In this document: positions 8,360 through 37,310 of the stretch, in pieces | Numbering within the stretch: the stretch's first letter is position 1 | Layout: the number at the start of each line of letters is the position of its first letter | Origin: an uncultured Gammaproteobacteria bacterium | Lineage (GTDB): Bacteria > Pseudomonadota > Gammaproteobacteria > SZUA-152 | Assembly: GCA_913009875.1 (NCBI GenBank) | Contig: CAJVYS010000003.1 | Span: 13,528 to 77,527 of the forward strand | DNA length: 64,000 nucleotides | Reading direction: 5' to 3' | Made by a program: the position numbers and the translations under genes | The notes under the pieces: generated by a model | What the model saw: the letters and a program-made list of their open reading frames with translations, nothing else | Databases searched by the model: none | Told to the model about the DNA's origin: nothing

Positions 8360-8502
8360 CCGCGAAACACCCTGGATGGCTGCAAAATCACTGGCATATT
8401 TACTTTAATGGCCTAATATCTGTTAGGTTTGCAAAAAATTAATTTCATTCTGCAACTATTGCAGGCAGAAAAATGATTAGCGAAAGAGAGAGAGGAGACC
8501 TC

Positions 8503-9522
8503 ATGAAAACACATTCCACATTGACCCGCATGCTCCACAAGGTACTGCTCATTACCTGTCTGGGCGCAGCCGCCGCAGGCGTGCAGGCTGCGGAAGACTA
8601 CAGCAGCTTTCTGAGGCCTGCTGAAATCCCCCAGCCGGACAACAACCGCATTACCACAGCACGCACCGAGCTGGGAAAGATGCTGTTCTTCGATCCCCGT
8701 CTCTCTGGCTCCAACTGGATCAGTTGTGGCACCTGCCATAACCCGGCCCTCGGCTGGTCCGATGGCCTGCCCACCGCCATTGGCCATGGTATGGGTGTCC
8801 TGGGACGCGCGACGCCCACCATCCTCAATACTGCCTATCAGCCACTGCAGTTCTGGGACGGCCGGGCACGGACGCTGGAAAAACAGGCCCTGGGCCCGAT
8901 TAAGGCCGCGGGTGAAATGAACCAGGATCTGGATGAAGTCATCAAGGAGCTTTCCGTCCTCAAGGGCTATCGCGATGCCTTTGAAGATGCCTATCCGGGC
9001 GAGGGCATCACGAAGAAGACCCTCGCCAAGGCCATTGCGACCTACGAGCGCACCATCGTTTCCACAGAGTCACCCTTTGACCGCTGGGTGAAAGGTGAAA
9101 CTCACGCCATGAGCAAGACGGCCCAGCAAGGCTTCGAGGTATTCCTCGGCAAGGGGCGCTGCGTGCTGTGCCATGGCGGCTTTAACTTTACCGACAATGG
9201 CTTCCACAATCTGGGCCTGAAGGGTGACGATGATCCGGGCCGCTATGGCATTCGCAAGGTCAAGATCCTCAAGGGCGCCTTCAAGACACCCACCCTGCGG
9301 GATGTCGAGCTTACCGCCCCCTATATGCACAACGGCATGTACAAAACGCTGGAAGAAGTTATTGATCACTACAACCGGGGTGGCGACACAAAGGATAATC
9401 TTGACCCCAACATGCAGCCCCTGCATTTGAATGCCAGCGAAAAGGCCGGCCTGGTGGCCTTTATGAAGGCGTTAACGGGTGAACCTGCGCCGGTCACACT
9501 ACCCCGTCTGCCCGTCGAATAA
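8503..9522 (+). CDS. di-haem cytochrome c peroxidase (CCP/MauG family)
   Basis: Two haem motifs CGTCHN and CVLCHGG with conserved spacing, PTLRDV.LTAPYMHNG motif, signal peptide. RBS agagaggagacctcATG. Confidence 0.85.
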   Translation: MKTHSTLTRMLHKVLLITCLGAAAAGVQAAEDYSSFLRPAEIPQPDNNRITTARTELGKMLFFDPRLSGSNWISCGTCHNPALGWSDGLPTAIGHGMGVLGRATPTILNTAYQPLQFWDGRARTLEKQALGPIKAAGEMNQDLDEVIKELSVLKGYRDAFEDAYPGEGITKKTLAKAIATYERTIVSTESPFDRWVKGETHAMSKTAQQGFEVFLGKGRCVLCHGGFNFTDNGFHNLGLKGDDDPGRYGIRKVKILKGAFKTPTLRDVELTAPYMHNGMYKTLEEVIDHYNRGGDTKDNLDPNMQPLHLNASEKAGLVAFMKALTGEPAPVTLPRLPVE

Positions 9523-12193: not shown

Positions 12194-12274
12194 GTAGCCT
12201 GGATGGAGCGCAGCGGAATCCGGGAAGTGTGATGCACCTTTATCCCGGATTCCGCTGCGCTCCATCCAGGCTAC
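12194..12274. repeat. family-2 palindromic element (gtagcctggatggagcgcagcggaatccggga ... tcccggattccgctgcgctccatccaggctac)
   Basis: Near-perfect 32-bp arms around an ~17-bp loop. Other copies at 10606-10684, 13027-13107 and 23971-24045. Confidence 0.8.
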
Positions 12275-12300
12275 CTTGTTGTTACTTGCTGTCAATCGCA

Positions 12301-13013: not shown

Positions 13014-13026
13014 AATGCTGTAGCAA

Positions 13027-13107
13027 GTAACCTGGATGAAACGAAGTGGAATCCGGGATGGGACTGCACCACACTTCCCGGATTCCGCTGCGCTCCAACC
13101 AGGCTAC
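13027..13107. repeat. family-2 palindromic element, adjacent to the family-1 copy
   Basis: gtaacctggatgaaacgaagtggaatccggga ... cccggattccgctgcgctccaaccaggctac. Confidence 0.75.
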
Positions 13108-22711: not shown

Positions 22712-23941
22712 TTGAACAACATAGCCACCAACCCCAAACTGGCGCAACTCCAGGCTATCTTTCATGCCCTCTGCAACGGCGGTGACGCAGAGGCATTGAT
22801 CAAGGCATTCGATGCAGAATGCGAAAGTCTTGCCCAGGAAGACATCACCTGGGTCCTGCAGAAAATCAATGAACAAGGCATGGCGTATCAAAACAACCCC
22901 AGGGTGAAGACATTCTACTACGACGTGGTGGAGCCAAAGCTGTCGGTTGGCATCATCAACGGTTTTCCACCGGGGCATCCGGTGCGCGTCTATCTCGAAG
23001 AGAACCGCATGCTGCGCTCCCTGTTCGCCCGCATCAGCAAACTCGATCCCGAGCAGGACAGCGACGATTTCCGGATTCTGTTCAGTGATATCTGCAAGGT
23101 GGAGAAACATTACCAGCGCAAGGAAAACCAGCTATTCCCCTGCCTGGAAAGACATGGCTGGGACGGCCCCAGCAAGAATATGTGGGCCTTTCACGACGAG
23201 ATCCGCGCGATGCTCAAACAGATTCGCCTGGCCCTGGAAGAAGGCCGGCTGGAAAAGGTCGGCGTCAACTTCTCCCTGCTCAAGGACGAAATGCTGCGTC
23301 TGATCTCAGTCGAGGAGGAGCGGCTGCTGCCCAATGCGCTGAAGCTGCTGGAAGAATCGGAATGGCAGGCCATGCGCACCGGCGACGAAGAGATCGGCTG
23401 GATGCTGGATATTACTCCACCGCCCTATCCCGTCCCCTCGGAAAAGGGAGAAGAGGAGAAAGAGGATGCGGAGAAAAACTACGTCCATCCTTCACAGGCC
23501 AAACCGGATGAAAATCCGAGCTTCGCCACCGACGACCAATTCCACTACGACGAAGGCTACATGACCCCGCAGCAGGTAAATCTCATCTTCCGCACCCTGC
23601 CGCTGGACATCACCTATGTGGACGAAAATGACCGCGTGGTGTTCTACAACCGCGGCGACGAGCGCCTCTTCCCGCGCAGCGCCGGCGTCATCGGGCGCGA
23701 GGTGCGCTACTGTCATCCGCCAAAATCCGTCGACACCGTGCTGCGCATTCTCGAGGAATTCAGGAAAGGCACGCGCGACGTGGCCGATTTCAGAATCAAC
23801 TTCAAGGGAAGGCTGGTGCAGATCCGCTACTTTGCCGTGCGGGACGAAGACAGAACCTACCGCGGTGTACTGGAGATGTCCCAGGACATCACCGACATTA
23901 AGACTCTGGAGGGGGAACAGCGTCTGCTGGATTGGGACTGA
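22712..23941 (+). CDS. DUF438/hemerythrin-like/PAS domain protein (TTG start as in ORF track; the first in-frame ATG is much further in)
   Basis: DUF438 architecture (N-terminal DUF438, HHE hemerythrin-like region, C-terminal PAS-like RYCHPPKS... FRINFKGRLVQIRYFAV). Confidence 0.6.
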   Translation: MNNIATNPKLAQLQAIFHALCNGGDAEALIKAFDAECESLAQEDITWVLQKINEQGMAYQNNPRVKTFYYDVVEPKLSVGIINGFPPGHPVRVYLEENRMLRSLFARISKLDPEQDSDDFRILFSDICKVEKHYQRKENQLFPCLERHGWDGPSKNMWAFHDEIRAMLKQIRLALEEGRLEKVGVNFSLLKDEMLRLISVEEERLLPNALKLLEESEWQAMRTGDEEIGWMLDITPPPYPVPSEKGEEEKEDAEKNYVHPSQAKPDENPSFATDDQFHYDEGYMTPQQVNLIFRTLPLDITYVDENDRVVFYNRGDERLFPRSAGVIGREVRYCHPPKSVDTVLRILEEFRKGTRDVADFRINFKGRLVQIRYFAVRDEDRTYRGVLEMSQDITDIKTLEGEQRLLDWD

Positions 23942-23970
23942 GCGCGGAAGTTCTGGAGACACGATCAAGA

Positions 23971-24045
23971 TAGTCTGGATGGAACGCAGCGTAATCCGGT
24001 AAGTGTGACGCCGCCCCGGATTCCACTGCGCTTCTTCCAGGCTAC
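23971..24045. repeat. family-2 palindromic element (divergent copy)
   Basis: tagtctggatggaacgcagcgtaatccgg ... ccggattccactgcgcttcttccaggctac. Confidence 0.65.
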
Positions 24046-24219
24046 TCGCTACGTCGGTTGCAGGGATGTTACAACACGAGACCCCGTTTCCCTGATCAAC
24101 AAAAAAACTGGCCTGGCGGTTGTTGCCTCGTTGAACCACATGCTGTGGCACCCCAGCCATGCTCAATCTTGGGAGTCTTGCCATTGCTTTACTCTATGCT
24201 TTGCTCTCTTTTGTCTAGC

Positions 24220-24315
24220 ATATCCCTGCATAGGTGCGGAATCAATTACTCTGACCCCATTGATTTCATATCCCTGCATAGGTGCGGAATCAATTACTCT
24301 GACCCCATTGATTTC
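24220..24315. repeat. perfect 48-bp tandem duplication (atatccctgcataggtgcggaatcaattactctgaccccattgatttc x2) in an AT-rich spacer
   Basis: Read directly. Two identical adjacent copies in a ~550-bp low-GC stretch immediately upstream of the truncated RND gene. Confidence 0.9.
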
Positions 24316-24624
24316 TGGCCAACTCAAGAATAATTCCAGGAAAAAGAAAAAGGCAAGACTTGACCCCGCGCCTGGTTCCGATCCTGCGTATAAAAGCAGA
24401 TAGAAAGAAGCAGATAAAAGGGCTCTGACCCCTTTTATCCCGCTTTTATCCCGTTCACAAGATATATGGGCACTGGGGATTTTCCGAGCTTAGCTGATCC
24501 CCAAAAAAAACTGAAACCGAAAAAGATATTTTCAATACCGCTTCACCACTCCTCAATCAACGGGCTTGTCCAACAGACGGTTCAGATTGTGGTTCGTTCC
24601 TCACACAATCTAACCTTATTCGTT

Positions 24625-26811
24625 ATGTTCCCGCCAGCCCTGGCCGTCTCGGAGGAGGTGGACAAGGCTCTGGCGCAACTGCGCCTGCCGCCGGATACCC
24701 GTCTGGAGAAGTTCTACGACCAGGCCGAGATCATCGGCTTGGCCTATCGCAACATGCGCAACAATCTGCTGGTGGGGGCGCTGCTGGCGATTATTGCCGT
24801 GGTCTGGGTGCTAGGCCGCAACCGCGCCAGCCTGGTGATCGCCGCCAGTTTCCCGCTGGTGGTGCTGGCCACCTTCGCCGCCATGGGCGTCTTCGATCTG
24901 GGCCTGAACCTGATGACCCTCGGCGCGTTGACGGTGGCCATCGGCCTGATCGATGACGATGCCGTGGTGGTGATGGAAAATATCGACCGCCACCGGGCAA
25001 TGGGCAAGACGCCGCGGCATGCTGCGCTGGACGGTACCCGCGAAGTGCTGGCCGCGGACGTCGCCGGCACCCTGACCGTGCTGGCGGCCTTCGTGCCGCT
25101 GGTGCTGGTGACCGGTCTGGCGGGTCGCCTGTTTCAACCCTTCGGCCTCACCTTTGGTTTTATTTTGCTGTTTTCCCTGTTGGTCTCACTGACACTGATT
25201 CCGCTGGCGTCGGTCTATTGGGCGCCGCACAAGCGGACGAATGCACCCCACATGACCGCCGGGGCACGCTGGATCCACTGGCTGGGCGTGTGGAATCTGC
25301 GTCTGCTGGACAAGCTGCTTCGGCATCGGGGCAAGACCCTGTCCGTCACCGCGTTGTTGCTTGTTGCCAGCCTGGCGCTGCTGATCTTCAACCCGGCGCG
25401 CCTGTTGCCGCTGCTGGATGAAGGCAGTTTGCTGTTGAGCTATCAGCTGGCACCGGGTACCTCCTTGTCCGAAAGCAACCGCGTGGGTGATGAGCTGGAG
25501 GCACGCCTGCTGGCAATGCCGGCGGTCAAGGCAGTCTTCCGCCGTACCGGCTCTCCCGAGTCATCTTTTTATATCGAAGGGCCGGATGAAGGTGAACTGG
25601 TGGTTCGACTGGACAAGAAAAAGGCACCGGATCCCTTGGCGGTGAAGGCCGACATCGACCGCCTGTTGGCCGGGACACCGGGCGTTATCGGCCGGGTCAA
25701 CGAGCCGACCACGGAGAAACTGGACGAATCCTTTTCCGGCCTGCCGGCCCTGTTCGGCATCACCCTTTATGGCAACGATCTGCAACAACTCTACGCCGCC
25801 GCGGCCAAAGTGGAAGCGGCGGCGGGAAAGGTCGCGGGATTGGCCAATGTCGTCAATAACACCAAAATTCCGGTGGACCAGATCCGCGTAGCCATCGACC
25901 GCACGGCACTGGCCCGTTTTGACGTCAGCGCGCAAACCGTGGCGCAGGCTGTGCGCACCGCCATGCAAGGTGATCGCATCGGCCAGGTGATTATTGAGCA
26001 GCAGCCCGTCGATATCATTCTGCGCTACGCCAATGCTCGGCGCGACAGCCTGAGCGCACTCAAGCAGGTACAGATACCCGGCCCCGCCGGTCGGCTGATT
26101 CCACTGTCACAACTTGCGCGTATCGACACCCTGTCGAGCTACCCCATCATCGAGCACCAGCACGGCTTGCGGGCGCTGACGCTGACCGCCGAGATCGATG
26201 GCAATCCTTATGCCGTGATGCGCAGTCTGGACCAGGCATTGACCGCGCTACAACTGCCCGAGACTGTGCAGTGGGGTTACACGGGTGAATATGGTCAACT
26301 GATGAAAACGGGCGGACAGGTTCTGTGGGTGCTGCTGGCCTCGGCCTTGTTGGTCTACGGCATCATCGCCATCCAGCTCGGCAACCTGCTGGACCCGGCG
26401 GTGGTGCTGGCCAAGCTGCCGCTGGATTTCATGGGTGCGGCGCTGGCGCTGTTCATCACCCGCCAACACCTTGACCTCACCGTGGCCATCGGTTTTATCA
26501 CCCTCATCGGGGTGGCGACCAACAATGGCATCATGCTACTCACCTTTACCCGCAACTTTCGCCGTCAGGGTTTGGATGCCGTGGCGGCCATACGCGAGGC
26601 GGTGCGCCTGCGCACCCGCCCCATGCTACTGACCCATCTGACCACGCTGTTAGCCCTGATCCCCGCGGTCCTGGGGTTGGGAGAGGGGCCGCAACTGCTG
26701 CAACCGCTGGGCATTATGCTGTTCGGCGGCCTCACGGCGGGCACACTCCTGACGCTGAATCTGTTACCGGTGATTTATGTCGCAACTGAACGCTGGCGGC
26801 GGGCATCGTGA
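24625..26811 (+). pseudogene. 5'-truncated RND efflux permease (CzcA/AcrB superfamily) lacking the N-terminal ~300 residues
   Basis: Homology begins abruptly at ...PPALAVSEEVDK..., the PN2/TM2 region (GALLAIIAVVWVLGRNRASLVIAASFPL...GLIDDDAVVVMENIDRH), and continues to the normal C-terminus. The remaining length (~730 aa) is short of a ~1030-aa RND protein. The ORF's first 53 codons come from the AT-rich scar. Confidence 0.7.
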
Positions 26812-26896
26812 CTTAGGCAGTCTGGGTTGAGTACAGAGAACCCTGGGAGTTTGTCGTACCAATTATCCTGAGTTCCACTGTGTACAAGCCAAGCCT

Positions 26897-27220
26897 CTAA
26901 TCGTGAATGATAATGCGCCGGGTATCTGTCTGAATATCCACAACCTGGCCGGCCTCATGGGCAATTTCTGCCAGTTCAGCCAAGGCCGGCTCATTGTTTT
27001 CCTCTGCCAGAGTCTTCAGCGTATTTTCCGCATGACAATCGATGTGGTGTGTGGCCGCATCACCGGCTTCGCAGCCACAGGCCGGAGCATCAATCGCCAG
27101 CACGAAATCTTCCGGCATTTGCAGGATCACCGGCTCGGCATGGTGAACCTGCGCAATAGCCTTTTTGGCACTGATCGGGCCCTCCCAGTGGAGGGTGGGC
27201 ATATTGCTGTAATCACGCAT
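26897..27220 (-). CDS. hypothetical Cys/His-rich small protein (putative metal-binding: APACGCEAGDAATHHIDCH)
   Basis: 107-aa ORF with clustered C-x-C ... HH ... C-H. No family assignment made. Confidence 0.35.
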   Translation of the reverse strand: MRDYSNMPTLHWEGPISAKKAIAQVHHAEPVILQMPEDFVLAIDAPACGCEAGDAATHHIDCHAENTLKTLAEENNEPALAELAEIAHEAGQVVDIQTDTRRIIIHD

Positions 27221-27523
27221 GGTTGTCTCCCTTGTATGGCTGTCTGGATGTTGTTGGCCTATTACCCTGCATCAATATAGATCATGTTCCGTCGCCATGC
27301 GCAGCGAGGCAGCAAAGCGCCGCATGCGTGTGGTCTGTTTTTTTCAAAAAACTGATCAGGAACATCAGGTATCCCTGAACACGGCAAATTAGCTAGCCGG
27401 GACAACAATAACTGCCCGGAATGCTGCCTTAATAAAAATGTTCTGACTGCAACTTGGGTTACTGAAGCCTGAAACGACTTGCACTAAGGTACCCGGAGTC
27501 TCGCAAATATTGAGGATGACGCC

Positions 27524-27871
27524 GTGGGTATAGCACGCAAGAAGCTTGATCAAGTCGCAGAACTGACACGTCGCCTGAGCAAGGATTATCCAGCGGAGAC
27601 CCGCGCCTTTCTCGGCTTCCTGCAGACGGCCGAGCAGGGAAAGGCGCTGGATTTACGCATCAAGGAACTGATTAATGTTGGTTTGGCGGTGGCTGGGCAA
27701 TGTGAGTGGTGCATCGCCTTCCATGTCGAGCAGGCAGTCAAGGCCGGCGCCAGTCGCGATGAAGTGGTGGAAGCCGGTTTCATGGCGGTGGTGATGCATG
27801 GTGGGCCGGCCTACATGTACATGACACCACTCTTCGAGGCTGTGGATGAGTTTTATCAGAGTTCAGGGTAG
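27524..27871 (+). CDS. carboxymuconolactone decarboxylase / AhpD-like family protein
   Basis: AhpD-like motif CEWCIAFHVEQA. GTG start with RBS tgaggatgacgccGTG. Confidence 0.7.
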   Translation: MGIARKKLDQVAELTRRLSKDYPAETRAFLGFLQTAEQGKALDLRIKELINVGLAVAGQCEWCIAFHVEQAVKAGASRDEVVEAGFMAVVMHGGPAYMYMTPLFEAVDEFYQSSG

Positions 27872-27886
27872 CCCCCGGCTGAGGCA

Positions 27887-28534
27887 GTGAATACTTATCG
27901 GCCTTATTCCTCGCTGCCACCGGTTGTACTGGCTCTGCTGGTCATCAATGGTGGGATGTTTCTTCTGGAACATTCTGCTGCCAATCGGCTGATTGACCTG
28001 CTTGCGCTTTGGCCTGTGGCGGTACCTGTTTCACCATTGCTGGGCATGATGCCACCTTCGTTTGAACCATGGCAGCTGGTGAGCTATTCATTCTTGCACG
28101 GCAGCATCATGCACCTGCTGCTGAACATGTATGCCTTGTGGCTGTTCGGTACGCGTATGGAGAATGTCTGGGGCTCGAAGGTCTTTGCCCTTTACTACTT
28201 TGTCTGCGTCATGGGTGCGGGTTTGGTGCAACTGTATGTTGCCAGTCAAGCAGCGAAGCAGGGTGGTGTCTATCCGACGATCGGTGCCTCTGGTGGTGTG
28301 TTTGGCTTGTTGCTGGCCTTTGGTATGACCTTTCCTAACGAGCGGCTGATGCTTATTTTTCCGCCAATTGTGCTGAAGGCGAAATGGTTTGTACTGATTT
28401 ACGGCGCCATCGAGTTATGGGCTGGTGTTACTGGTACGGAAGCGGGCGTGGCACACTTTGCCCACTTAGGCGGTATGTTTTTTGGCCTTGCGTTGCTGCT
28501 TTACTGGCGTCGCTATCCGCCGGGGTTTCGTTGA
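27887..28534 (+). CDS. rhomboid family intramembrane serine protease
   Basis: Catalytic GASGGVFGLL (Ser) and HLGGMFFG (His). Six TM segments. HLLLNMYALWLFG motif. Confidence 0.85.
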   Translation: MNTYRPYSSLPPVVLALLVINGGMFLLEHSAANRLIDLLALWPVAVPVSPLLGMMPPSFEPWQLVSYSFLHGSIMHLLLNMYALWLFGTRMENVWGSKVFALYYFVCVMGAGLVQLYVASQAAKQGGVYPTIGASGGVFGLLLAFGMTFPNERLMLIFPPIVLKAKWFVLIYGAIELWAGVTGTEAGVAHFAHLGGMFFGLALLLYWRRYPPGFR

Positions 28535-28600
28535 ATGTGTAGCGCCGTGAGCTGCACGGATAAAACTCGTTGGCGAAGTTGAGATGGAGGAAACAGGTAC

Positions 28601-29656
28601 ATGGAATCGGGCTTATTAAAGAAGATGCTGCGCGACATGCTGCTGGCGCGGGCCTTCGAAGAGCGGGCGGCGCAGGAATACGCTCAGGGCAACATCGCCG
28701 GTTTTCTACATCTCTATCCGGGCGAGGAGGCGGTGGGCGTGGGTGTACTGCATGCAGCGGAGCCCGCCGATTATGTTGTCTCCACTTACCGGGAACATGT
28801 CCACGCCCTGGTGCGTGGCGTGCCGGCCCGGATGGTGATGGCCGAGCTGTTCGGCCGCAAGACCGGTTGCAGCGGCGGCCTGGGCGGCTCCATGCATCTG
28901 TTTGACCGTGAGCGCCGCTTCATGGGCGGCTATGCCATCGTTGGCGAGACCTTTCCCATCGCCATCGGTATCGGCTACGCCATCGCCATGCGTGAACTGC
29001 CCGAGGCGGTAATTTGTTTCTTTGGCGATGGCGCTGTAAACCAGGGAACCTTCCATGAAAGTCTCAACATGGCGGCGCTGTGGAAACTGCCAGTGCTGTT
29101 CGTGTGCGAGAACAACCATTACCAGATAGGTACCGAGATTCACCGCCACTCAGCGGTTGCCGAGGTTTACAAGCGTGCCTGTGGATATCGTATTCCGGCC
29201 CGCCGGGTTAACGGCATGGATGTGTTGGCCGTGCATCGTGCGACCGAAGAGGCCCTGGCGCAAATCCGTGCTGGTAATGGCCCACAATTCATCGAATGCG
29301 AGACCTACCGTTTCCGTGGTCACTCCATGGCCGATCCCGGCAGTTACCGTCCCAAGGTGGAACTGCAGGCCTACGAGAGTACCGAGGATCCGGTGAAGAT
29401 CGCCATCGCCGAGACTGTGACCGCCTATCCCACGGCGGAGCAGATTGCAGCCGTGGGCTCGGACAATATCGCCAGCCTGACAGGCAGTCTGCGCAGTGGC
29501 GGACATTTTCCACCTGAACATCTCGACGCCATGCAGGCGGAAATCGCCGCTGAGGTGGAGGCGGCCGTGCATTTCGCCAGTGAAAGCCCCGAGCCCACGC
29601 TGGCGGATGCGCAGGCGGCATTGGATTGCAATCGACAGGGGGAGGTGCTGGTCTGA
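28601..29656 (+). CDS. thiamine-diphosphate-dependent 2-oxo-acid (pyruvate/acetoin) dehydrogenase E1 component, alpha subunit
   Basis: TPP-binding GDGAVNQG...ENN motif. Heterotetrameric E1alpha family. Confidence 0.85.
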   Translation: MESGLLKKMLRDMLLARAFEERAAQEYAQGNIAGFLHLYPGEEAVGVGVLHAAEPADYVVSTYREHVHALVRGVPARMVMAELFGRKTGCSGGLGGSMHLFDRERRFMGGYAIVGETFPIAIGIGYAIAMRELPEAVICFFGDGAVNQGTFHESLNMAALWKLPVLFVCENNHYQIGTEIHRHSAVAEVYKRACGYRIPARRVNGMDVLAVHRATEEALAQIRAGNGPQFIECETYRFRGHSMADPGSYRPKVELQAYESTEDPVKIAIAETVTAYPTAEQIAAVGSDNIASLTGSLRSGGHFPPEHLDAMQAEIAAEVEAAVHFASESPEPTLADAQAALDCNRQGEVLV

Positions 29657-30636
29657 TGGCGGAACAGGTTTTTTACTGGCAGGCGCTCAACCGCGCCTTG
29701 GATGCCGAGATGGCGGTGGATGATTCAGTCGTCGTGCTGGGTGAGGACGTGGGACTCTACGGTGGCAGTTATCGGGTCACCGAAGGGCTGCATGCCAAAT
29801 ACGGTGAGTGGCGCTTGCGCGATATGCCTATCTCCGAAGGCAGTTTTACCGGTCTCGGCGTCGGCGCGGCAATGGTCGGCCTACGTCCGGTGGTGGAAAT
29901 CATGACCATCAACTTCGCGTTACTCGCCCTGGACGCCATCATCAATATGGCGGCCAAGATCCCCTTCATGTCCGGCGGACAGTTTTCCATGCCACTGGTA
30001 GTGCGCATGCCCGGCGGGGTGGCCAAACAGCTCGCCGCTCAGCATTCGCAGCGACTGGAGCAAACCCTGATGAATGTGCCGGGTCTGCGCATCGCCGTGC
30101 CAGCAACACCGCAGGATGCCTACTGGCAGTTACGCCAGGCGATCAATAGTGATGAACCGATTGTGCTGCTGGAGCATGAACTGCTTTATTTCAGTAAAGG
30201 CGAGCTGGACGAATCACGGCAAGCGCCTCCCATGCACCGCGCCCAAGTGTGTCGACAGGGTGGTGACCTCACCATCGTCACCTATTCGCGGATGTGCGAT
30301 CTTGCCTTGCAAGCGGCGACGCAACTCGCCGAAACGGGCATCGAGGCAGAAGTCATCGATTTGCGCAGCCTGCGCCCCATTGACTGGGACAGCTGTGTGG
30401 TATCGCTGGAAAAAACCCATCGTCTGCTGATCGTGGAAGAGGATTCAGGTTTCTCCGGCGCGGGTGCCGAGATCGCCGCGGGCCTTGCCGAACGTTGTTT
30501 CCTGATCATGGATGCGCCGCCGCGACGCGTGGCGGGAAGGGAGCTGCCCATTGCCTATAACGCCGCTCTGGAAGCTGCCAGTATTCCTCGGGTCACCGAT
30601 GTCGTCAGTGCCGCCCAACAACTGTGTAATCCCTGA
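29656..30636 (+). CDS. 2-oxo-acid dehydrogenase E1 component, beta subunit
   Basis: Transketolase-like pyrimidine-binding and C-terminal domains. ATG overlaps the alpha-subunit stop. Confidence 0.85.
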   Translation: MAEQVFYWQALNRALDAEMAVDDSVVVLGEDVGLYGGSYRVTEGLHAKYGEWRLRDMPISEGSFTGLGVGAAMVGLRPVVEIMTINFALLALDAIINMAAKIPFMSGGQFSMPLVVRMPGGVAKQLAAQHSQRLEQTLMNVPGLRIAVPATPQDAYWQLRQAINSDEPIVLLEHELLYFSKGELDESRQAPPMHRAQVCRQGGDLTIVTYSRMCDLALQAATQLAETGIEAEVIDLRSLRPIDWDSCVVSLEKTHRLLIVEEDSGFSGAGAEIAAGLAERCFLIMDAPPRRVAGRELPIAYNAALEAASIPRVTDVVSAAQQLCNP

Positions 30637-30648
30637 GGAGTCATCGCC

Positions 30649-31893
30649 GTGCGTGAACCCATTCTGATGCCGAGCCTTTCCGATACCATGGAAACAGGCC
30701 ATCTTATCGACTGGTTGAAACAACCGGGCGACGCGGTAAAAAAGGGCGAAGCCATTGCCGAAGTGGAAACGGACAAGGCGGTCATGGATGTAGAAGCCTT
30801 TTATGATGGCTATCTGGCTGGCCCCCTGGCGGCGGCGGACACGGATATTCCCGTGGGCGTGGTGATCGGTTACATCGTCGATAGCCTGGGTGCGGAAAAA
30901 GCCACGGAAAAACAGGAAAAACAAGAGAAGCAGAAAGTGGATAAAGCCCCCCTCGCCAAGGCGGCAGATGTAGGCATAAAAGCACCACCACCGGCTGTTC
31001 AAACATCGACGGAAGCACCGGCTCAGGCGGCCAAGGCTCCAGCATCAGCCAAGCCAATGGCAACCGACATGACATCGAGCAAACACATTCCCGCCTCACC
31101 CTATGCACGTGGGCTGGCGCGAGAACTGGGCATCGATCTGGCACGGCTGACAGCAGGACCAGACGGCAGCATCCGTTCCGTTCAGGTAGTATCGGCCGCA
31201 CTGGGCAGGGTTGAACCGAATCTCAGCGATGGCCCGGACTATGAGCTTCATCCCCTCACTCCAATGCAGAAGGCCATAGCCAATAACATGATGGCGGCCG
31301 CGACGACCCCCACATTTCGTGTTAGTGCCCGGTTTCCGCTTGCACCGCTGATTGCCTTGGCGCACGAAGAAGGTTACTCCCTCACCTTGCTGCTGGCTCG
31401 CGCCTGTGCATTGACTGTAGAGGCGCATCCGCGTTTCAACGCAGTGCTCACCCCGCAGGGGTTGGCGCAGCGGCAACAGGTCGATGTCGGTATTGCGGTG
31501 GATGTGCCCAATGGTCTGGTTACGCCGGTATTGCGTGATGTCGCACGCCGTCCAGTCGAGGAACTGGCCGGGAACTGGAACACGCTGAAGGAGCGGGCGA
31601 CAGGCAAGCAACACAGCCAACGTCTGACACCACAAGACTACCGCGGGGCAACTTTTTATCTCTCCAATCTTGGCATGTTCAGTAGCGTTGTCCATTTTGA
31701 TGCCGTTGTTCCCGCTGGTGCCGTGGCGATACTCGCGGTTGCTGCAATACAGGATGGCCTTGTCGAATTCACACTCAGCTGTGATCACCGGGTGGTCTAT
31801 GGCGCCGATGCGGCACGCTTTATGGAAACACTGGCCCTGTTGCTGGGTGATCCCACTGGTCTTGATGCTGCACCGACCAGCGGCGCTGCGTGA
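30649..31893 (+). CDS. dihydrolipoamide acyltransferase E2 component (lipoyl domain, E3-binding domain, catalytic domain)
   Basis: Lipoyl motif EVETDKAVMDVEA. Peripheral subunit-binding domain (ASPYARGLARELGIDL). Catalytic DHRVVYGA. GTG start. Confidence 0.85.
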   Translation: MREPILMPSLSDTMETGHLIDWLKQPGDAVKKGEAIAEVETDKAVMDVEAFYDGYLAGPLAAADTDIPVGVVIGYIVDSLGAEKATEKQEKQEKQKVDKAPLAKAADVGIKAPPPAVQTSTEAPAQAAKAPASAKPMATDMTSSKHIPASPYARGLARELGIDLARLTAGPDGSIRSVQVVSAALGRVEPNLSDGPDYELHPLTPMQKAIANNMMAAATTPTFRVSARFPLAPLIALAHEEGYSLTLLLARACALTVEAHPRFNAVLTPQGLAQRQQVDVGIAVDVPNGLVTPVLRDVARRPVEELAGNWNTLKERATGKQHSQRLTPQDYRGATFYLSNLGMFSSVVHFDAVVPAGAVAILAVAAIQDGLVEFTLSCDHRVVYGADAARFMETLALLLGDPTGLDAAPTSGAA

Positions 31894-31903
31894 GACGGGC
31901 AAT

Positions 31904-32611
31904 ATGTCACCGAGCAAGACACACATGAAAACCTGCCAGGTCTGTCGGCATAGCAAGCCGATGAACCAATTGTTGCCGGCACGACTGGTGCGAGGTGGTG
32001 TGTTGAGCTTGATCCGTGGGGATATCCCGGACTGGCAGGATGACGGCTACATCTGTTTCACCTGCCTCAACCGTTACCGCACCGAATATGTGCAGAATTT
32101 GATGGAAAAGGATCTGGGTGAACTGGATGAACTTGAACAAGAAGTGATGAATAGCCTGCAGGATAATGCTCTGCTTTCCGAGAATATCAATGAGGAATAT
32201 GAACAATCCCTGACCTTTGGCGATCACATCTCCGACAAGGTGGCTGAGTTTGGCGGCAGCTGGAAATTCATCATTTTGTTCGGTGTCGTTCTCGCTATCT
32301 GGATCATCATCAATACGGTGTTTGTGCTTGCCGGACCCTTTGATCCCTATCCCTTTATTCTGCTCAATCTCGTACTTTCACTGCTGGCGGCGATACAGGC
32401 GCCGGTCATCATGATGAGTCAGAATCGTCAGGAAGACCGTGACCGCATTCGTGCAGAAAATGATTACCAAGTGAATCTAAAGGCCGAAATGGAAGTCCGA
32501 CTGATCAGTGAAAAGCTCGACCAGTTGTTACATCAGGAAATGCGGCGTTTCATGGAGGTTCAGGAGATTCAGATGGAAATGCTGAATGAACTACATGACA
32601 AGATACGATGA
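31904..32611 (+). CDS. DUF1003 membrane protein with N-terminal Cys4 zinc-ribbon
   Basis: CQVC...CFTC N-terminus. DUF1003 core FGGSWKFIILFGVVLAIWIIINT...FDPYPFILLNLVLSLLAAIQAPVIMMSQNRQ. Confidence 0.7.
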   Translation: MSPSKTHMKTCQVCRHSKPMNQLLPARLVRGGVLSLIRGDIPDWQDDGYICFTCLNRYRTEYVQNLMEKDLGELDELEQEVMNSLQDNALLSENINEEYEQSLTFGDHISDKVAEFGGSWKFIILFGVVLAIWIIINTVFVLAGPFDPYPFILLNLVLSLLAAIQAPVIMMSQNRQEDRDRIRAENDYQVNLKAEMEVRLISEKLDQLLHQEMRRFMEVQEIQMEMLNELHDKIR

Positions 32612-32695
32612 GACATTTTTTGCCCCCCTTTCCCTTTGCAGGGAGAGAGGACGGCCGGCCGCACAGCTGATCAATAACGTAGTAAGGAGAAAACA

Positions 32696-32992
32696 ATGAC
32701 CAACGAAGAACAATTAGTTGAATCTCATGTCAGAGAGTATGAGTCACGTCTGAGACATATTGATGAACTCATCGCGCGCGCAAGCAAAACGGATTTTCAG
32801 AAGGTAGAGTATCAGTCTGAACTATCGGACCTGAAACAGAAACGCAACAAGCTGTCGGGTCACCTCGATGAGATTAAGGCACTGTCCGCTGAGGAATGGG
32901 CAAAGAAGGGTGGCCCAATGGTTATTTGGGATATTGTCGCCGAGCGGCTGGAAAAACTGGTCGAGTATCTTGAGGGCACATCTAAAGATTGA
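32696..32992 (+). CDS. hypothetical coiled-coil protein
   Basis: 98-aa ORF with good RBS (aaggagaaaacaATG). Start of a lower-GC block. Confidence 0.4.
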   Translation: MTNEEQLVESHVREYESRLRHIDELIARASKTDFQKVEYQSELSDLKQKRNKLSGHLDEIKALSAEEWAKKGGPMVIWDIVAERLEKLVEYLEGTSKD

Positions 32993-33050
32993 TTGTGACC
33001 TCTGCGTAATGATTTGCTATGCCCTTGAGTAATCACAGGAGACAGACAAC

Positions 33051-35489
33051 ATGTGTGATGAAGCTGGTCAATATATTCGCTGGTTTTCTGAAATGAGTAT
33101 TGATGATGTACCACTGGTTGGCGGCAAGAATGCCTCGTTGGGGGAGATGTATCAAAACCTGCGCTCTGAAGGTGTGCGAATTCCCAATGGGTTTGCCATT
33201 ACCGCAACAGCATATCGTTATGTACTTGATCACAACAATGCCTGGCCGTTATTGCATAAGGCACTTGATGGCCTGAACCCGGACAATATCAAGGACTTGC
33301 AGGCTCGTGGTGATGCTGCCAGGACGATCATCGATGGCTGTGTATTGCCAGATGATCTGAAAGTGAAAATCTCTCAAGGCTATGAGCGATTAAAGCAGGA
33401 ATATGGTGAGAGTTTTTCTGTGGCGGTACGCTCATCGGCCACGGCGGAGGACTCGCCAGAGGCCTCTTTTGCCGGACAAAATGATACCTATCTCAATGTC
33501 AGTAGTGTGGATGCGCTGCTCAATGCCTATAAACGTTGCCTGGCATCCAATTTTACTGACCGTTCCATTCACTATAAATACGACAATGGTTTTGACTATT
33601 ACACAGTCTACCTCTCTGTTGTTGTGATGAAAATGGTGCGCAGTGATTTGGGGGCCAGTGGCGTCATGTTTTCGCTGGACACAGAAACCGGATTCAAAGA
33701 TGTTGTTTTTAACAATGCAGCACTGGGACTGGGTGAAAATGTAGTACAGGGAACGATTGATCCCGATAGTTTCTATGTGCACAAGCCCACATTCAAAAAG
33801 AACTATCGGGCCGTTCTGAAGCGTCGCCTGGGAAAAAAAGAAAAAAAGATGATTTTTACCGACACCCTTAATACCGGCAACATTGCTGTGGAATATACCC
33901 GAAATATTGATACCAGTAACGAGGAAAGAAATCACTTCTGTATCACCGATGCGGATGTCATGGTCCTGACGGACTATGCCATCCGTGTGGAAAACCATTA
34001 TTCACAGAAGGCCGGCTTTTATAAGCCCATGGATATGGAGTGGGCAAAGGATGGCAATGATGGAGAACTGTACATGGTGCAGGCGAGACCGGAGACGGTG
34101 GCATCACAAAAGAAAGGCAGTGTGCTTGAAATATATCACCTGAATGAAAGATCCCGCGTCGTACTCCAGGGTCGAGCTGTCGGCACCAAAATCGGCAGCG
34201 GAAAAGTACGTGCCATCACTGATGTGAAGTATCTCAACGACTTTCAGCCGGGAGAAGTTCTGGTGGCGGATACCACGACACCGGACTGGGAGCCGGTGAT
34301 GAAAACGGCAGCCGCGATCATTACCAATCGTGGTGGCCGTACCTGCCACGCCGCTATCGTTTCACGTGAACTGGGGATTCCCGCCATTGTTGGATCCGGG
34401 CGTGCGACTGAGTTATTGAGAAACGGGCAGGAAGTCACCGTCAGTTGTGCCGAAGGCGAAACCGGTAATGTCTATGAGGGTATTCTGGATTTTGAAATTC
34501 AACAGACGGATCTCAGTCAACTGGGGAAACCCAACACCGAGATAATGATGAATGTGGGCAATCCGGATCAGGCGTTCAGCCTCGCCTCATTGCCTGTGGA
34601 TGGTATTGGCCTGGCGCGGATGGAATTTATTATCAATGAATACATCAAGGTGCACCCGATGGCACTTAAGCACCCGGAAAAGGTGGATGCTGAAACCCGT
34701 GAGAAAATCGCGGACATCAGTATTGCCTATGATGATCCTGAAGAATTTTTCATTAAAACTCTTGCCGAGGGTGTCGCCACGATTGCCGCTGCGGTTTATC
34801 CCAAGCCCTGTGTGGTTCGCATGAGCGACTTTAAGAGTAATGAATATGCCACCTTGCTGGGCGGACGTTTTTTTGAACCGGAAGAAGATAATCCGATGAT
34901 CGGTTTTCGTGGTGCATCCCGTTATGTACATCCTGCCTATGCCGAGGGATTTGCTCTGGAGTGCGTAGCTATGAAACAAGTGCGCGATGTCATGGGTATG
35001 ACTAACGTCAAATTGATGATTCCATTCTGCCGACGGGTAGAAGAGGGGAAAAGGGTGTTGGAGGCCATGGCCTCTAACGGTCTCGCACGTGGTGACAGCG
35101 GCCTTGAGATCTATGTTATGTGCGAGATTCCTAACAACGTTATCCTCATTGATGAATTCGCCAAGCTGTTCGACGGTTTTTCCATCGGCTCCAATGACCT
35201 CACCCAGCTGACTCTTGGCGTGGACCGCGATTCGGAAATTGTAGCCTTTGATTTCGATGAGCGTGATCCCGGGGTAAAAGAGATGATCCGTCTAGCGGTG
35301 ACAGGCGCAAAGCGCAATGGCCGTCATTCCGGCCTGTGTGGGCAGGCGCCGTCTGATTATCCCGAGATAGCTGCATACCTGGTGGAAATTGGTATCGATT
35401 CCATGAGTCTCAACCCGGATTCGGTGCTTTCCACTACCCGGCATGTGCTGGCGGTGGAACAGCGTCTGCGGAAGGGTTCTGAGGGATAG
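33051..35489 (+). CDS. ppsA: phosphoenolpyruvate synthase (pyruvate, water dikinase)
   Basis: Full-length match to the PpsA pattern: VGGKNASLGEM, catalytic His region NRGGRTCHAAIVSRELGIPA, C-terminal PEP-utilising domain. 812 aa. Confidence 0.9.
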   Translation: MCDEAGQYIRWFSEMSIDDVPLVGGKNASLGEMYQNLRSEGVRIPNGFAITATAYRYVLDHNNAWPLLHKALDGLNPDNIKDLQARGDAARTIIDGCVLPDDLKVKISQGYERLKQEYGESFSVAVRSSATAEDSPEASFAGQNDTYLNVSSVDALLNAYKRCLASNFTDRSIHYKYDNGFDYYTVYLSVVVMKMVRSDLGASGVMFSLDTETGFKDVVFNNAALGLGENVVQGTIDPDSFYVHKPTFKKNYRAVLKRRLGKKEKKMIFTDTLNTGNIAVEYTRNIDTSNEERNHFCITDADVMVLTDYAIRVENHYSQKAGFYKPMDMEWAKDGNDGELYMVQARPETVASQKKGSVLEIYHLNERSRVVLQGRAVGTKIGSGKVRAITDVKYLNDFQPGEVLVADTTTPDWEPVMKTAAAIITNRGGRTCHAAIVSRELGIPAIVGSGRATELLRNGQEVTVSCAEGETGNVYEGILDFEIQQTDLSQLGKPNTEIMMNVGNPDQAFSLASLPVDGIGLARMEFIINEYIKVHPMALKHPEKVDAETREKIADISIAYDDPEEFFIKTLAEGVATIAAAVYPKPCVVRMSDFKSNEYATLLGGRFFEPEEDNPMIGFRGASRYVHPAYAEGFALECVAMKQVRDVMGMTNVKLMIPFCRRVEEGKRVLEAMASNGLARGDSGLEIYVMCEIPNNVILIDEFAKLFDGFSIGSNDLTQLTLGVDRDSEIVAFDFDERDPGVKEMIRLAVTGAKRNGRHSGLCGQAPSDYPEIAAYLVEIGIDSMSLNPDSVLSTTRHVLAVEQRLRKGSEG

Positions 35490-35759
35490 CGATGATGAAC
35501 GAGGCGGTTCTGGCGCATCGGCTTACCGGCATCAGGCTTGATCAAGAACTACCCCACTGAATAGTCCATTGGCAGACTTTGCCGATGCCATAAATAAATT
35601 ACCTGGCTGTAACTAGGGTTACATCCTCCCGTTCTCACCAAGACTATCATGCATGCAAGTGAGAGATATCAAACTGATAGTGTATTTTCAAAGGAAGTGT
35701 CTCTCAAACACATAATCCAACGAAAAATTAGCTTTCAGACGAAATCAGAGGAAATACGC

Positions 35760-37310
35760 ATGATGATTAAATACAAACAAAGGATTGGTGCGGCAGCGAT
35801 AGTGATTCTGTTGGCTTGCCTGGCAGCCGCTCCATCATTCGCCACCGAAGCATTGGCAGATGTTGATATCAGCTACTGGGTGCGTGATTCCCTTCGCATT
35901 GACCCTCGCGTGGACGCATCGAAGATCAGTGTGGCCAGTGAGCAGGGCATTGTCACTCTGTCCGGCACTGTGGATAACTTGGCGGCGAAGCAATATGCCG
36001 ATCTTGAGGCGAAAAAAATCAATGGTGTTAAGGGCGTTATCAACGAGATTACGGTAATACCCGTGTGGCGCTCGGATGCCGATATCAAGCACACCGTGAA
36101 GCGTCGCCTTCTGCATAGTACTGCCATCAGTTCGGAGAATATCCGGGTCACTGTCAATGACGGCCGGGTCACCCTGTTGGGCGAAGCACCTGACTGGGGG
36201 GAAGTGCAACAGGCCGGCTTGCTGGCCAGTGAGGTTGTTGGCGTAAAAATGGTCACCAATGATGTTGTCGCTGTCTGGCAGTATGAGCGCAGTGACCAGG
36301 CCATCAAGAAAGACGCCATCGCTGCGCTGCAACGCGATGTATATCTGAATGGTCTGCCTATCGTGGTCGATGTTAATAACGGTATTGTCACCCTGAAGGG
36401 TTCGGTTGGTAGTGTCTTTGAAAGTGATCGTGCGATGCAGAAGGTGCGCTGGATTTCGAACGTCAAGGGTGTCGTGAGCAACTTCAAGATTGAGGCTTGG
36501 GAGAATCGTGGTGCGCGCAAGGAAAAGGTCTGGCCATCGGATGATGCGCTGAAGCAAGCCGTTATGGCCGAACTGGATCAGGATCCCTACGTCGTGACCG
36601 CCGGCATCAGTGTTCGTGCCAGCCTCGGCTCGATTACGCTAGATGGCACGGTCAGTAGTTACTACCAGGCGCTTATCGCCGGACAGGATGCCAATAACGT
36701 GGTTGGCGTGGGCTGGGTTGTTAATAACCTATTGGTTGGCGGTACCAGCCGTTCTGACTGGCTGATCGAGGATGATGTTGCTTTTAATCTCGACACGGAT
36801 TATGTGCTGCAAGGCTTTCAGCTTAAGAGCAAGGTCAAGAATGGCGTGGTTAGTCTTACCGGCGAGGTGAACAACAGTTTCGAAAAATACCATGCTGGAA
36901 ATGTGGCGGCCGATGTTCTTGGTGTCAAACAGGTCATCAATCGGATCGCTGTCCTGCGGACGAGTATGAAGAGTGATCAGGCACTCACTGGTGATGTCAT
37001 TAACAATCTCCGTTGGAACTGGACTACCCGGCCCGTACTCAAAGATATCAAGGTCAGCGTAATCAACGGTGTCGTTACTCTGAAGGGGGCGGTCGATAGC
37101 GGGTCCGAGCGCCGTGAGGCGGGTCGTGTTGCGTTTCGTACCGCAGGTATTTTGGCGGTGGACAACCAACTAACGGTGACCAGTTACGATGCCAATTATC
37201 CATGGGATCAATGGTTCGACAAGAGTATACCCGGGCAATGGGATCCGACCTACTATCCTGGCCATATGTGGAAATACTACGAGCATCCGTACTTGTGGGA
37301 TAACAGCTGA
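35760..37310 (+). CDS. periplasmic multi-BON-domain protein (OsmY-like, ~6 BON repeats)
   Basis: Signal peptide. Repeated ...V.V.NG.VTL.G.V....A.. units. RBS gaggaaatacgcATG. Confidence 0.7.
   Translation: MMIKYKQRIGAAAIVILLACLAAAPSFATEALADVDISYWVRDSLRIDPRVDASKISVASEQGIVTLSGTVDNLAAKQYADLEAKKINGVKGVINEITVIPVWRSDADIKHTVKRRLLHSTAISSENIRVTVNDGRVTLLGEAPDWGEVQQAGLLASEVVGVKMVTNDVVAVWQYERSDQAIKKDAIAALQRDVYLNGLPIVVDVNNGIVTLKGSVGSVFESDRAMQKVRWISNVKGVVSNFKIEAWENRGARKEKVWPSDDALKQAVMAELDQDPYVVTAGISVRASLGSITLDGTVSSYYQALIAGQDANNVVGVGWVVNNLLVGGTSRSDWLIEDDVAFNLDTDYVLQGFQLKSKVKNGVVSLTGEVNNSFEKYHAGNVAADVLGVKQVINRIAVLRTSMKSDQALTGDVINNLRWNWTTRPVLKDIKVSVINGVVTLKGAVDSGSERREAGRVAFRTAGILAVDNQLTVTSYDANYPWDQWFDKSIPGQWDPTYYPGHMWKYYEHPYLWDNS

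Follow-up and report, generated by a model that had tools for sequence, protein, structure and literature searches.

A 5'-truncated RND permease gene fused to the decayed locus of a Y1 transposase in an uncultured gammaproteobacterium

The permeases of resistance–nodulation–division (RND) efflux pumps are chains of about 1000–1050 residues with 12 transmembrane segments (TM1–TM12) and two large periplasmic loops, and the topology of AcrB, the familiar member, is well established. They include proteins of the CzcA/ZneA heavy-metal efflux and MdtB-like type, to which the best solved relatives of the gene fragment described here belong (ZneA, 4K0E; MdtB, 9LYQ). A second, unrelated family also concerns us, namely the Y1 HUH transposases of the RAYT (REP-associated tyrosine transposase) and IS200 kinds, which are reviewed in PMC5581495, PMC6006769 and PMC8266576, together with the REPINs, doublets of REP (repetitive extragenic palindromic) sequences that form hairpins (PMC3116915, PMC3337134, PMC3733652). 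Here we describe a locus at which remnants of a permease gene and of a Y1 transposase gene adjoin each other. It lies in a 64-kb stretch of DNA, referred to below as the window, from an uncultured vent or marine gammaproteobacterium annotated as Chromatiales or Ectothiorhodospiraceae.

On its + strand the window carries the last two thirds of an RND permease gene, preceded by 545 bp of DNA unrelated to the pump, which we call the scar. Compared with described RND permeases the window copy shares strong homology over TM2–TM12 and the second periplasmic loop, but it lacks about 285 N-terminal residues and an adaptor gene, and is a remnant rather than a pump. We consider it likely that a recombination event, most simply a deletion, left this dead permease remnant fused to a decayed Y1 locus. 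In what follows, L-numbers designate the contigs compared (relatives and metagenomes) and P-numbers homologous proteins; absences of sequence are stated for the 64-kb window and not for the whole genome of the strain.

The truncated permease gene and its intact alleles

An initial annotation, made from the sequence alone, had noted that RND homology starts abruptly at about 24625, and the alignments place this start at 24630–24632. The open reading frame (ORF) that runs through it, 24466–26811, encodes 781 residues, of which residues 59–773 match positions 293–1019 of the 1021 in the Pfam ACR_tran profile (PF00873; E 5.7e-154, 514.7 bits against a gathering score of 28), so that family membership by sequence is clear. 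The NCBIfam RND models are likewise matched from about model position 292–306 onwards and stay far under their full-length cutoffs; RND_permease_2, for example, is covered over positions 292–1007 of 1009 with 429 bits against a cutoff of 1250. A database search returned some 1700 permease homologues, the close ones 1007–1027 residues long; the full-length homologues of up to 95% identity measure 1009–1019 residues. When full-length homologues (P0001, 1019 residues; P0004; P0006) were compared with the window by tblastn, their residues 287–1008 fell on 24640–26805, with 91% identity in the case of P0001, and residues 1–286 found no match anywhere, in any frame. The N-terminal span that the initial annotation supposed to be missing is thus indeed missing (residues 1–286 of P0001), and there is no upstream continuation of the gene that correction of a frameshift would restore. 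The remnant as a whole is 95% identical to P0125 (1009 residues) and 91% to P0001, and has a GC content of 62.8%.

Alignment to solved structures equates residue 21 of the remnant with AcrB 317 and residue 20 with ZneA 310. On the AcrB alignment the remnant starts about 35 residues ahead of TM2, and its product is judged to lack TM1 together with almost all of the first periplasmic loop, of which PN1 and DN would be gone entirely and PN2 for the most part. The full-length architecture of the family is therefore not that of the window copy. Two shorter homologues, P0034 (726 residues) and P0089 (787 residues), were considered as natural short forms and rejected, as each proved to be a full-length gene broken by frameshift, its upstream ACR_tran pieces remaining in place. 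In two metagenome contigs, at L006:4340–7395 and L007:9339–12364, the orthologous pump gene is split into two to three ORFs by frameshifts, for which either errors of sequencing or a separate pseudogenisation of this gene would account.

The intact orthologues of relatives, 91–95% identical to the remnant, form an operon of adaptor and permease. A gene for a membrane-fusion adaptor of 357–366 residues lies directly upstream of the permease in L001, L003, L120 and L125, and no outer-membrane-factor gene accompanies it. Within the window neither kind of gene was found by Pfam or by tblastn with the adaptor and OEP proteins of relatives, and the adjacent adaptor gene characteristic of an RND pump is accordingly wanting. 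The initial annotation had remarked on the absence of both partners upstream of the gene. The remark holds as an observation, but the outer-membrane factor was not to be expected there, given that the operons of relatives have an adaptor only.

The age of the truncation can be read from two contigs. L120 carries P0125 together with the right-hand neighbours found in the window (orf107, CMD, rhomboid and E1 genes) and shares 93.8% DNA identity with 24632–29661, while nothing in the window corresponds to its first 2571 nt, which comprise the adaptor gene, a 104-aa ORF and codons 1–283 of the permease. L088, a contig of the ENA marine metagenome run DRR093004, is 99.88% identical to 24632–37220, that is over 12.6 kb, and runs 221 nt past the breakpoint into intact permease coding sequence (residues 210–1008 of P0001). 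Since L088 is intact across the breakpoint, the truncation is, as judged from these alignments, derived, recent and strain-specific. Moreover, only two of the 12 substitutions that separate L088 from the window over 12.6 kb fall in the 2.2-kb remnant, which means that there is no excess of decay and that decay has not begun. A metagenome scan with the lost N-terminal region found only relatives of at most 90% identity, none of them sharing either flank of the window; the closest adaptor homologue, P0148, belongs to a more distant relative (86% DNA identity), and the left neighbour ancestral to the window strain was not recovered. Three near-identical contigs break in or near the pump gene, L089 ending at window position 25059, L090 at 26078 and L088 221 nt past 24632, and co-existing intact and truncated alleles may have confused the assemblers there.

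Gene callers see none of this. A product identical over 728 residues and starting at ATG 24625 is present in the protein collection as P0122, from a 77.6-kb NCBI/ENA contig, and a partial copy of it is annotated "Chromatiales bacterium"; exact look-ups of the 781-aa and 728-aa products and of the protein of the PAS/hemerythrin gene to the left gave no record. Relative to the intact alleles the window lacks 2 nt at 24638–24641, and this deficit places both ATG 24625 and ATG 24466 in frame with the remnant; the in-frame ATG 24625 is the reason that a clean 728-aa permease is reported. The in-frame placement is probably a coincidence. It might instead be supposed that a functional, newly initiated short RND protein is made from one or the other ATG and kept by selection, a proposal in keeping with the reading frame that is intact over 728–781 codons, with the upstream starts that the deficit brings into frame, and with the permease annotation of P0122. 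An intact frame, however, is what recency alone leads one to expect, with two of about 2180 positions differing from the intact allele. The product would want TM1 and nearly all of the first periplasmic loop, and the 58-aa N-terminal extension of the 781-aa ORF, which is read across the scar, is hydrophilic junk. No adaptor is encoded in the window, no sigma-70-like promoter was detected on the + strand of the scar, no Shine-Dalgarno-like sequence is recognisable ahead of ATG 24625 or ATG 24466, and the short form is found in none of the relatives. A selected short protein is therefore, in our estimate, barely credible. Because TM1 and the first loop are gone, and adaptor, promoter-like site and Shine-Dalgarno sequence with them, the truncated permease gene is most readily seen as a non-functional pseudogene in which mutations have not yet accumulated.

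The scar as the remnant of a Y1 transposase locus

The features on which the argument turns are these, in window coordinates.

22712–23941, + strand: gene for a 409-aa protein with PAS and hemerythrin domains (Pfam PAS_10, 2.2e-27; Hemerythrin, 2.6e-13)
23971–24045, no strand assigned: REPIN-like palindrome, arms at 23971–23999 and 24016–24044 about a 16-nt spacer, 79% complementary
24046–24086, no strand assigned: last conserved intergenic stretch, with the left boundary of the variable segment at 24086/24087
24087–24631, − strand: scar, 545 bp, 45.3% GC, by homology what remains, in one piece, of a Y1 (IS200/RAYT-like) transposase locus
24092–24184, − strand: codons 1–31 of a Y1_Tnp gene (PF01797, RAYT-like), MARLPRLSMAGVPQHVVQRGNNRQASFFVDQ, from tblastn, phmmer and alignment
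24219–24315, − strand: perfect 2.0 × 48-bp tandem repeat, 100% matches, Tandem Repeats Finder (TRF) score 194
24353–24369, − strand: degenerate box GGGGTCAAG in a weak terminator-like hairpin, at −175 from the Y1 ATG
24412–24453, − strand: strong hairpin with GGGTCAGAG in its loop, the box at 24424–24432 lying at −240
24630–24641, no strand assigned: right junction, from alignments with the intact alleles L088, L120, L003 and L125
24632–26811, + strand: 5'-truncated RND permease gene, corresponding to codons ~284–1009 of the intact gene plus the stop codon

The sharp fall in GC upstream of the permease, pointed out in the initial annotation, is borne out by the values of 45.3% for 24087–24631, 62.8% for the remnant and 56.9% for the whole window. 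The scar occurs once in the window and, read on the − strand, consists of the upstream region of a Y1 gene (24185–24631, 447 bp) followed by the first 31 codons of that gene. The encoded peptide matches the PF01797-bearing protein P0126 (E 2.6e-9) and, in tblastn against plasmids, the N-termini of annotated transposases (best E 2e-7). Its alignment with family members contains ten invariant columns (M1, R3, R6, P13, H15, Q18, R19, G20, R23 and F27), so that homology to the family is clear. The homologues from R. rubrum, Iodobacter and Skermanella carry Pfam Y1_Tnp (PF01797), and at full length they score 70–77 bits against the NCBIfam model "REP-associated tyrosine transposase" (NF047646), whose cutoff is 80 bits. 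The 32-aa Y1 peptide alone, being too short, matched nothing in Pfam or NCBIfam. These comparisons show the scar, at the level of homology, to be the remnant of a Y1 transposase locus. About 200 codons, including those for the HUH and Tyr motifs of the catalytic core, are missing from the fragment, and Y1 protein beyond residues 1–31/35 is encoded nowhere in the window.

The initial annotation had called this DNA foreign. It is unrelated to the pump, as that term implied, but the description is better refined to the remnant of a Y1/RAYT-like locus that may have been resident. An att origin, also raised there, gained no support, as the scar matched no plasmid, phage or viral DNA. Plasmid and phage collections gave no match to the scar by blastn in distant mode, a 30-nt piece of the 48-bp unit matched no viral contig, and the plasmid matches seen by tblastn are the transposase N-termini already mentioned. 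We therefore do not favour a phage att site or a known plasmid or phage as the source. An Rfam search of 23000–28000 returned nothing at E ≤ 1.

Set against the described families, the 31 codons encode a peptide that can be aligned with the conserved N-terminal part of RAYT and IS200/IS605 TnpA proteins, a match that reaches the Y1 family as a whole. A REPIN-like palindrome 47 nt from its truncated end and short structured repeats upstream of it are as usual around RAYT genes, but what the homologues share as a conserved repeat is a GGGGTCAG(AG) box, at a fixed distance of some 65 nt before the ATG, and not a GTAG-type REP. Unlike IS200/IS605 elements, which are complete units with subterminal hairpins in multiple identical copies, the scar is a 545-bp fragment present singly in the window. 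A Bac_DnaA_C-like C-terminal domain, an idea taken from PMC6006769 that would, if such a domain were present, suggest a binder of 9-bp boxes, left no Pfam signal in the full-length Y1 homologues even at E ≤ 5.

All 22 database matches to the Y1 N-terminus (P0126–P0147) are short proteins of 37–79 residues, and several of them, on contigs of 4.5–344 kb, lose family homology after about 30–60 residues. Either 5' fragments of this gene may be common, or the word-based choice of candidates with a 45-aa query may have produced the pattern as an artefact.

A conserved box, its duplication and the neighbouring palindrome

The exact repeat of two 48-bp units that the initial annotation had reported at 24220–24315 is perfect, and is placed by our analysis at 24219–24315. 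Each unit contains a GGGGTCAGAG box (TCTGACCCC on the + strand, at 24250–24258 and 24298–24306) within a weak hairpin with a 7-bp stem (−5.9 kcal/mol, z −1.5), and from the ends of the two boxes to the Y1 ATG it is 66 and 114 nt. A 27-nt core, AATCAATGGGGTCAGAGTAATTGATTC, present in each copy, is 96% identical to L121:153–179, on the contig of the closest Y1 homologue, where it stands at an equal distance from the Y1 ATG of L121. The hairpin was considered as the main conserved feature of the unit and set aside, since its stem is weak and it is absent from the Skermanella, Iodobacter and Pseudoalteromonas homologues, in which the box and its distance to the ATG are nevertheless conserved.

We examined nine homologous Y1 loci and found that the core box, (T)GGGGTCAG(AG), ends 63–74 nt before the start codon. 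Its positions relative to the Y1 ATG are as follows.

L121 metagenome contig: −65
Pseudoalteromonas: −66
Iodobacter (L122): −72
Skermanella mucosa (L123): −65, −93 and −110, in 28-nt tandem units
Skermanella sp. TT6: −66
Sporomusa termitida (L127): −74
R. rubrum (L004): −41, as GGGGTCAGAC
P. aeruginosa and Burkholderia, more distant homologues of 48% identity: absent
Window: −66, −114 and −240, plus the degenerate copy at −175
Contig positions within these loci: L005:1428–1436 and L005:1093–1102; L128, −66

The loci with the box thus span Alpha-, Beta- and Gammaproteobacteria as well as a Negativicute, and short tandem arrays of it are frequent. The chance of meeting a given 7-mer in a 40-nt interval is about 0.002 per locus, and on this ground we regard the box as a conserved cis element of the Y1 subfamily; the survey shows its conservation. 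Elsewhere in the 64 kb there is no copy, so that the box repeats only in the scar. The strong hairpin at 24412–24453 is terminator-like on both strands (−11.4 kcal/mol, z −4.5, none of 200 shuffles as good) and is overlapped and extended by an 11-nt × 2 tandem repeat found by TRF at 24432–24453, CTTTTATCCCG, which accounts for the tttatccc repeats of the initial annotation.

It seems probable that the 48-bp duplication simply adds one more repeat to an array of box units typical of the family, and the identity of the two copies indicates that it is young. What the box does is a matter for tentative suggestion only. It is possible, though we would not wager on it, that it is a cis element not yet described, serving either as a recognition or cleavage site of the transposase or as an autoregulatory operator, and that the duplication is a step of array expansion and not random slippage. 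We did not find the box in PMC6006769, the single paper searched for it, and a full-text literature search for the 10-mer gave irrelevant eukaryotic primer matches among the matches listed. On this thin basis, the GGGGTCAG box and its tandem expansion upstream of the Y1 subfamily may be a new observation.

The palindromic element that the initial annotation had placed at 23971–24045 has two inverted arms of about 29 nt (DNA fold −16.9 kcal/mol, z −2.5) and two further extragenic copies in the window, at 12194–12278 and 13020–13107. The 25-nt arm pattern has four matches in the window where none is expected. The two other copies start with GTAGCCTGGATGGAGCGCAGCGGAATCCGGG and its inverse and are of the GTAG-tagged type (GTAGCC...). 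In its inverted-arm layout the palindrome at 23971–24045 agrees with REPINs and can be classed with them, but it is a degenerate example, with ATAGTC instead of GTAGCC and the 79% arm complementarity listed above. As regards the association with REP sequences that is typical of RAYT genes, the window has three REPIN-like copies in 64 kb, the nearest being the one beside the truncated end of the Y1 fragment, at a site that it also occupies where there is no Y1 gene. The palindrome ends 41 nt before the left junction and borders the scar from outside. It stands at the same site in L011, L015 and L008, relatives without any Y1 gene, and on this positional evidence the palindrome family is inherited vertically.

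A sister species contributes a separate observation. At L010:5972–6040, 226 nt after the stop codon of the PAS/hemerythrin gene and in equivalent position and orientation, CAATGGGGTCAG is preceded by a 14-nt × 4 tandem repeat, and a separate 49-codon Y1 fragment lies about 1 kb further on (L010:7019–7168).

These findings suggest that box-type or Y1 elements already sat downstream of the PAS gene when the pump lost its 5' part, and that the site sees their decay repeatedly. The element at the left flank may therefore be an old resident instead of a new import.

The junctions and the proposed deletion

To the left of the scar, the PAS/hemerythrin gene is the last gene of a block that is colinear with relatives; by Pfam the genes upstream of the pump remnant are the PAS/hemerythrin gene, QueG and a YjeF-type gene. 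In five contigs (L008–L011 and L015) the PAS/hemerythrin protein is 88–95% identical and colinearity with the window extends to 23962–24086. By blastn it stops at 24086 in L008 and at 24079 in L011 and L015, after which every relative has different DNA. At the right junction, DNA identity to the intact alleles begins at 24630–24632. The sequence CGCCAGC is shared, the 2-nt deficit follows, and from 24642 identity is uninterrupted. Such a ragged junction, which has no shared repeat, is better fitted by illegitimate recombination than by a repeat-mediated event. The comparison of the locus in relatives that the initial annotation had called for thus gives a left side that is colinear up to 24079–24086 and a right flank shared with the intact L120 and L088. 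No tRNA gene lies near the junction in the window or in relatives, and a tRNA-linked island is not supported.

From this material we propose the following history. The ancestor would have carried a two-gene efflux operon, whose products were a membrane-fusion adaptor of about 366 residues and a permease of the RND type with about 1009; orf107 and the genes for CMD, rhomboid and PDH-E1 came next. Illegitimate recombination, without homology, would then have removed the adaptor gene and the first ~283 permease codons, and joined permease codon ~284 to the upstream region of a resident, decaying Y1 locus just downstream of the PAS/hemerythrin gene. In its simplest form this was a deletion, one of no less than 2.6 kb and possibly far larger. 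The 48-bp unit would have been duplicated recently, by slippage or unequal exchange within the box array, as is proposed from the continuing identity of its two copies. The initial annotation had invoked a deletion of the first third of the pump gene and of its partners. The loss and the fusion to unrelated low-GC DNA stand, and it is the deletion itself that we infer.

Several observations weigh against this account. The PAS gene adjoins the efflux operon in no relative, so that the event may have been far larger, or no deletion at all, and no contig shows both ancestral flanks together. The truncation of the Y1 gene at its 3' end, at 24087–24092, is a second event that a single deletion does not explain, and it needs either a separate event or a more complex single one. 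The 2-nt deficit leaves translation of the remnant formally possible. Finally, the window appears to come from a metagenome assembly, and both the junctions and the perfect repeat are known from assembled sequence alone.

The flanks bear on an alternative, that the event was an inversion or translocation with one breakpoint inside the RND gene, for which a pair of Y1/box elements may have served as partners. In that case the adaptor gene would survive elsewhere in the genome, outside the window, and so would the first third of the permease gene. The adjacency of PAS and RND genes is found in the window only. Relatives with the left flank carry other, unrelated genes to its right (aconitase B and purB in L010; Fic and HTH genes in L011), and the left neighbours of the operon in L001 and L125, namely a VTT/PAP2 gene, PepSY and a second tripartite RND operon, are all absent from the window by tblastn. 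The right side of the PAS gene is, moreover, a synteny breakpoint in all five relatives, and mobile-element remnants lie exactly at the junction. Against these points, there is no second copy of the scar, box or Y1 gene within the window, and the ragged junction, with no shared repeat, gives no indication of homologous recombination between element copies. As no contig joins the ancestral left neighbour to the left flank of the window, a simple deletion and a larger rearrangement are indistinguishable by the junction. On balance we think an inversion or translocation unlikely.

A chimeric join of two strains or loci could, in principle, have produced the junctions or the 48-bp duplication as artefacts of metagenome assembly. 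The closest sequences are all contigs of metagenomes or metagenome-assembled genomes, the near-identical contigs L088, L089 and L090 end in or near the RND gene in a way that suggests strain heterogeneity, and the identical 728-aa product occurs on only one contig in the protein collection. Neither junction (24087–24092 and 24630–24641), however, lies in sequence that recurs within the window, a chimera would call for two independent joins at a spacing of 545 bp, and the scar is coherent in itself, with a Y1 start codon and a family-typical box at a family-typical distance. We consider such an artefact very improbable, and retain a recombination junction, most simply the product of a deletion, as the likely origin of the locus.

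To the right of the pump gene and outside the scar lies one further feature of interest.

26897–27220, − strand: convergent His/Cys-rich ORF of 107 aa

This ORF, which the initial annotation had described as small, convergent and Cys/His-rich, exists and is conserved. It encodes 8 His and 3 Cys residues with the motif CGC...HHIDCH. Four metagenome contigs carry it unchanged, the intact syntenic locus L120 has a version of 92.5% identity, and in L006/L112 a homologue of 36% identity lies about 3.4 kb downstream of the pump. It matched nothing in Pfam or NCBIfam, and its product might bind metal as a partner of the efflux system. On L120, at 7599–8810, a gene for a 403-aa CDF protein (Cation_efflux/ZT_dimer) stands between E1-alpha and E1-beta and is absent at the corresponding point of the window (29661|29673).

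Truncation of genes at junctions rich in mobile elements is well known, and the present case is that of an ordinary dead gene rather than a new system. For annotation it means that what is labelled a 728-aa "efflux RND transporter permease subunit" is a remnant, decapitated recently and lacking its adaptor. For the organism it would mean that this strain has lost an efflux system, probably one for metals or amphiphiles, which a co-occurring strain of 99.9% identity keeps intact. The locus is furthermore a hot spot of synteny breaks in every related species, adjoining decayed elements of the Y1/RAYT type, and the box, if it has not already been described, would offer a handle on DNA recognition or self-regulation by these poorly understood RAYT-like genes.

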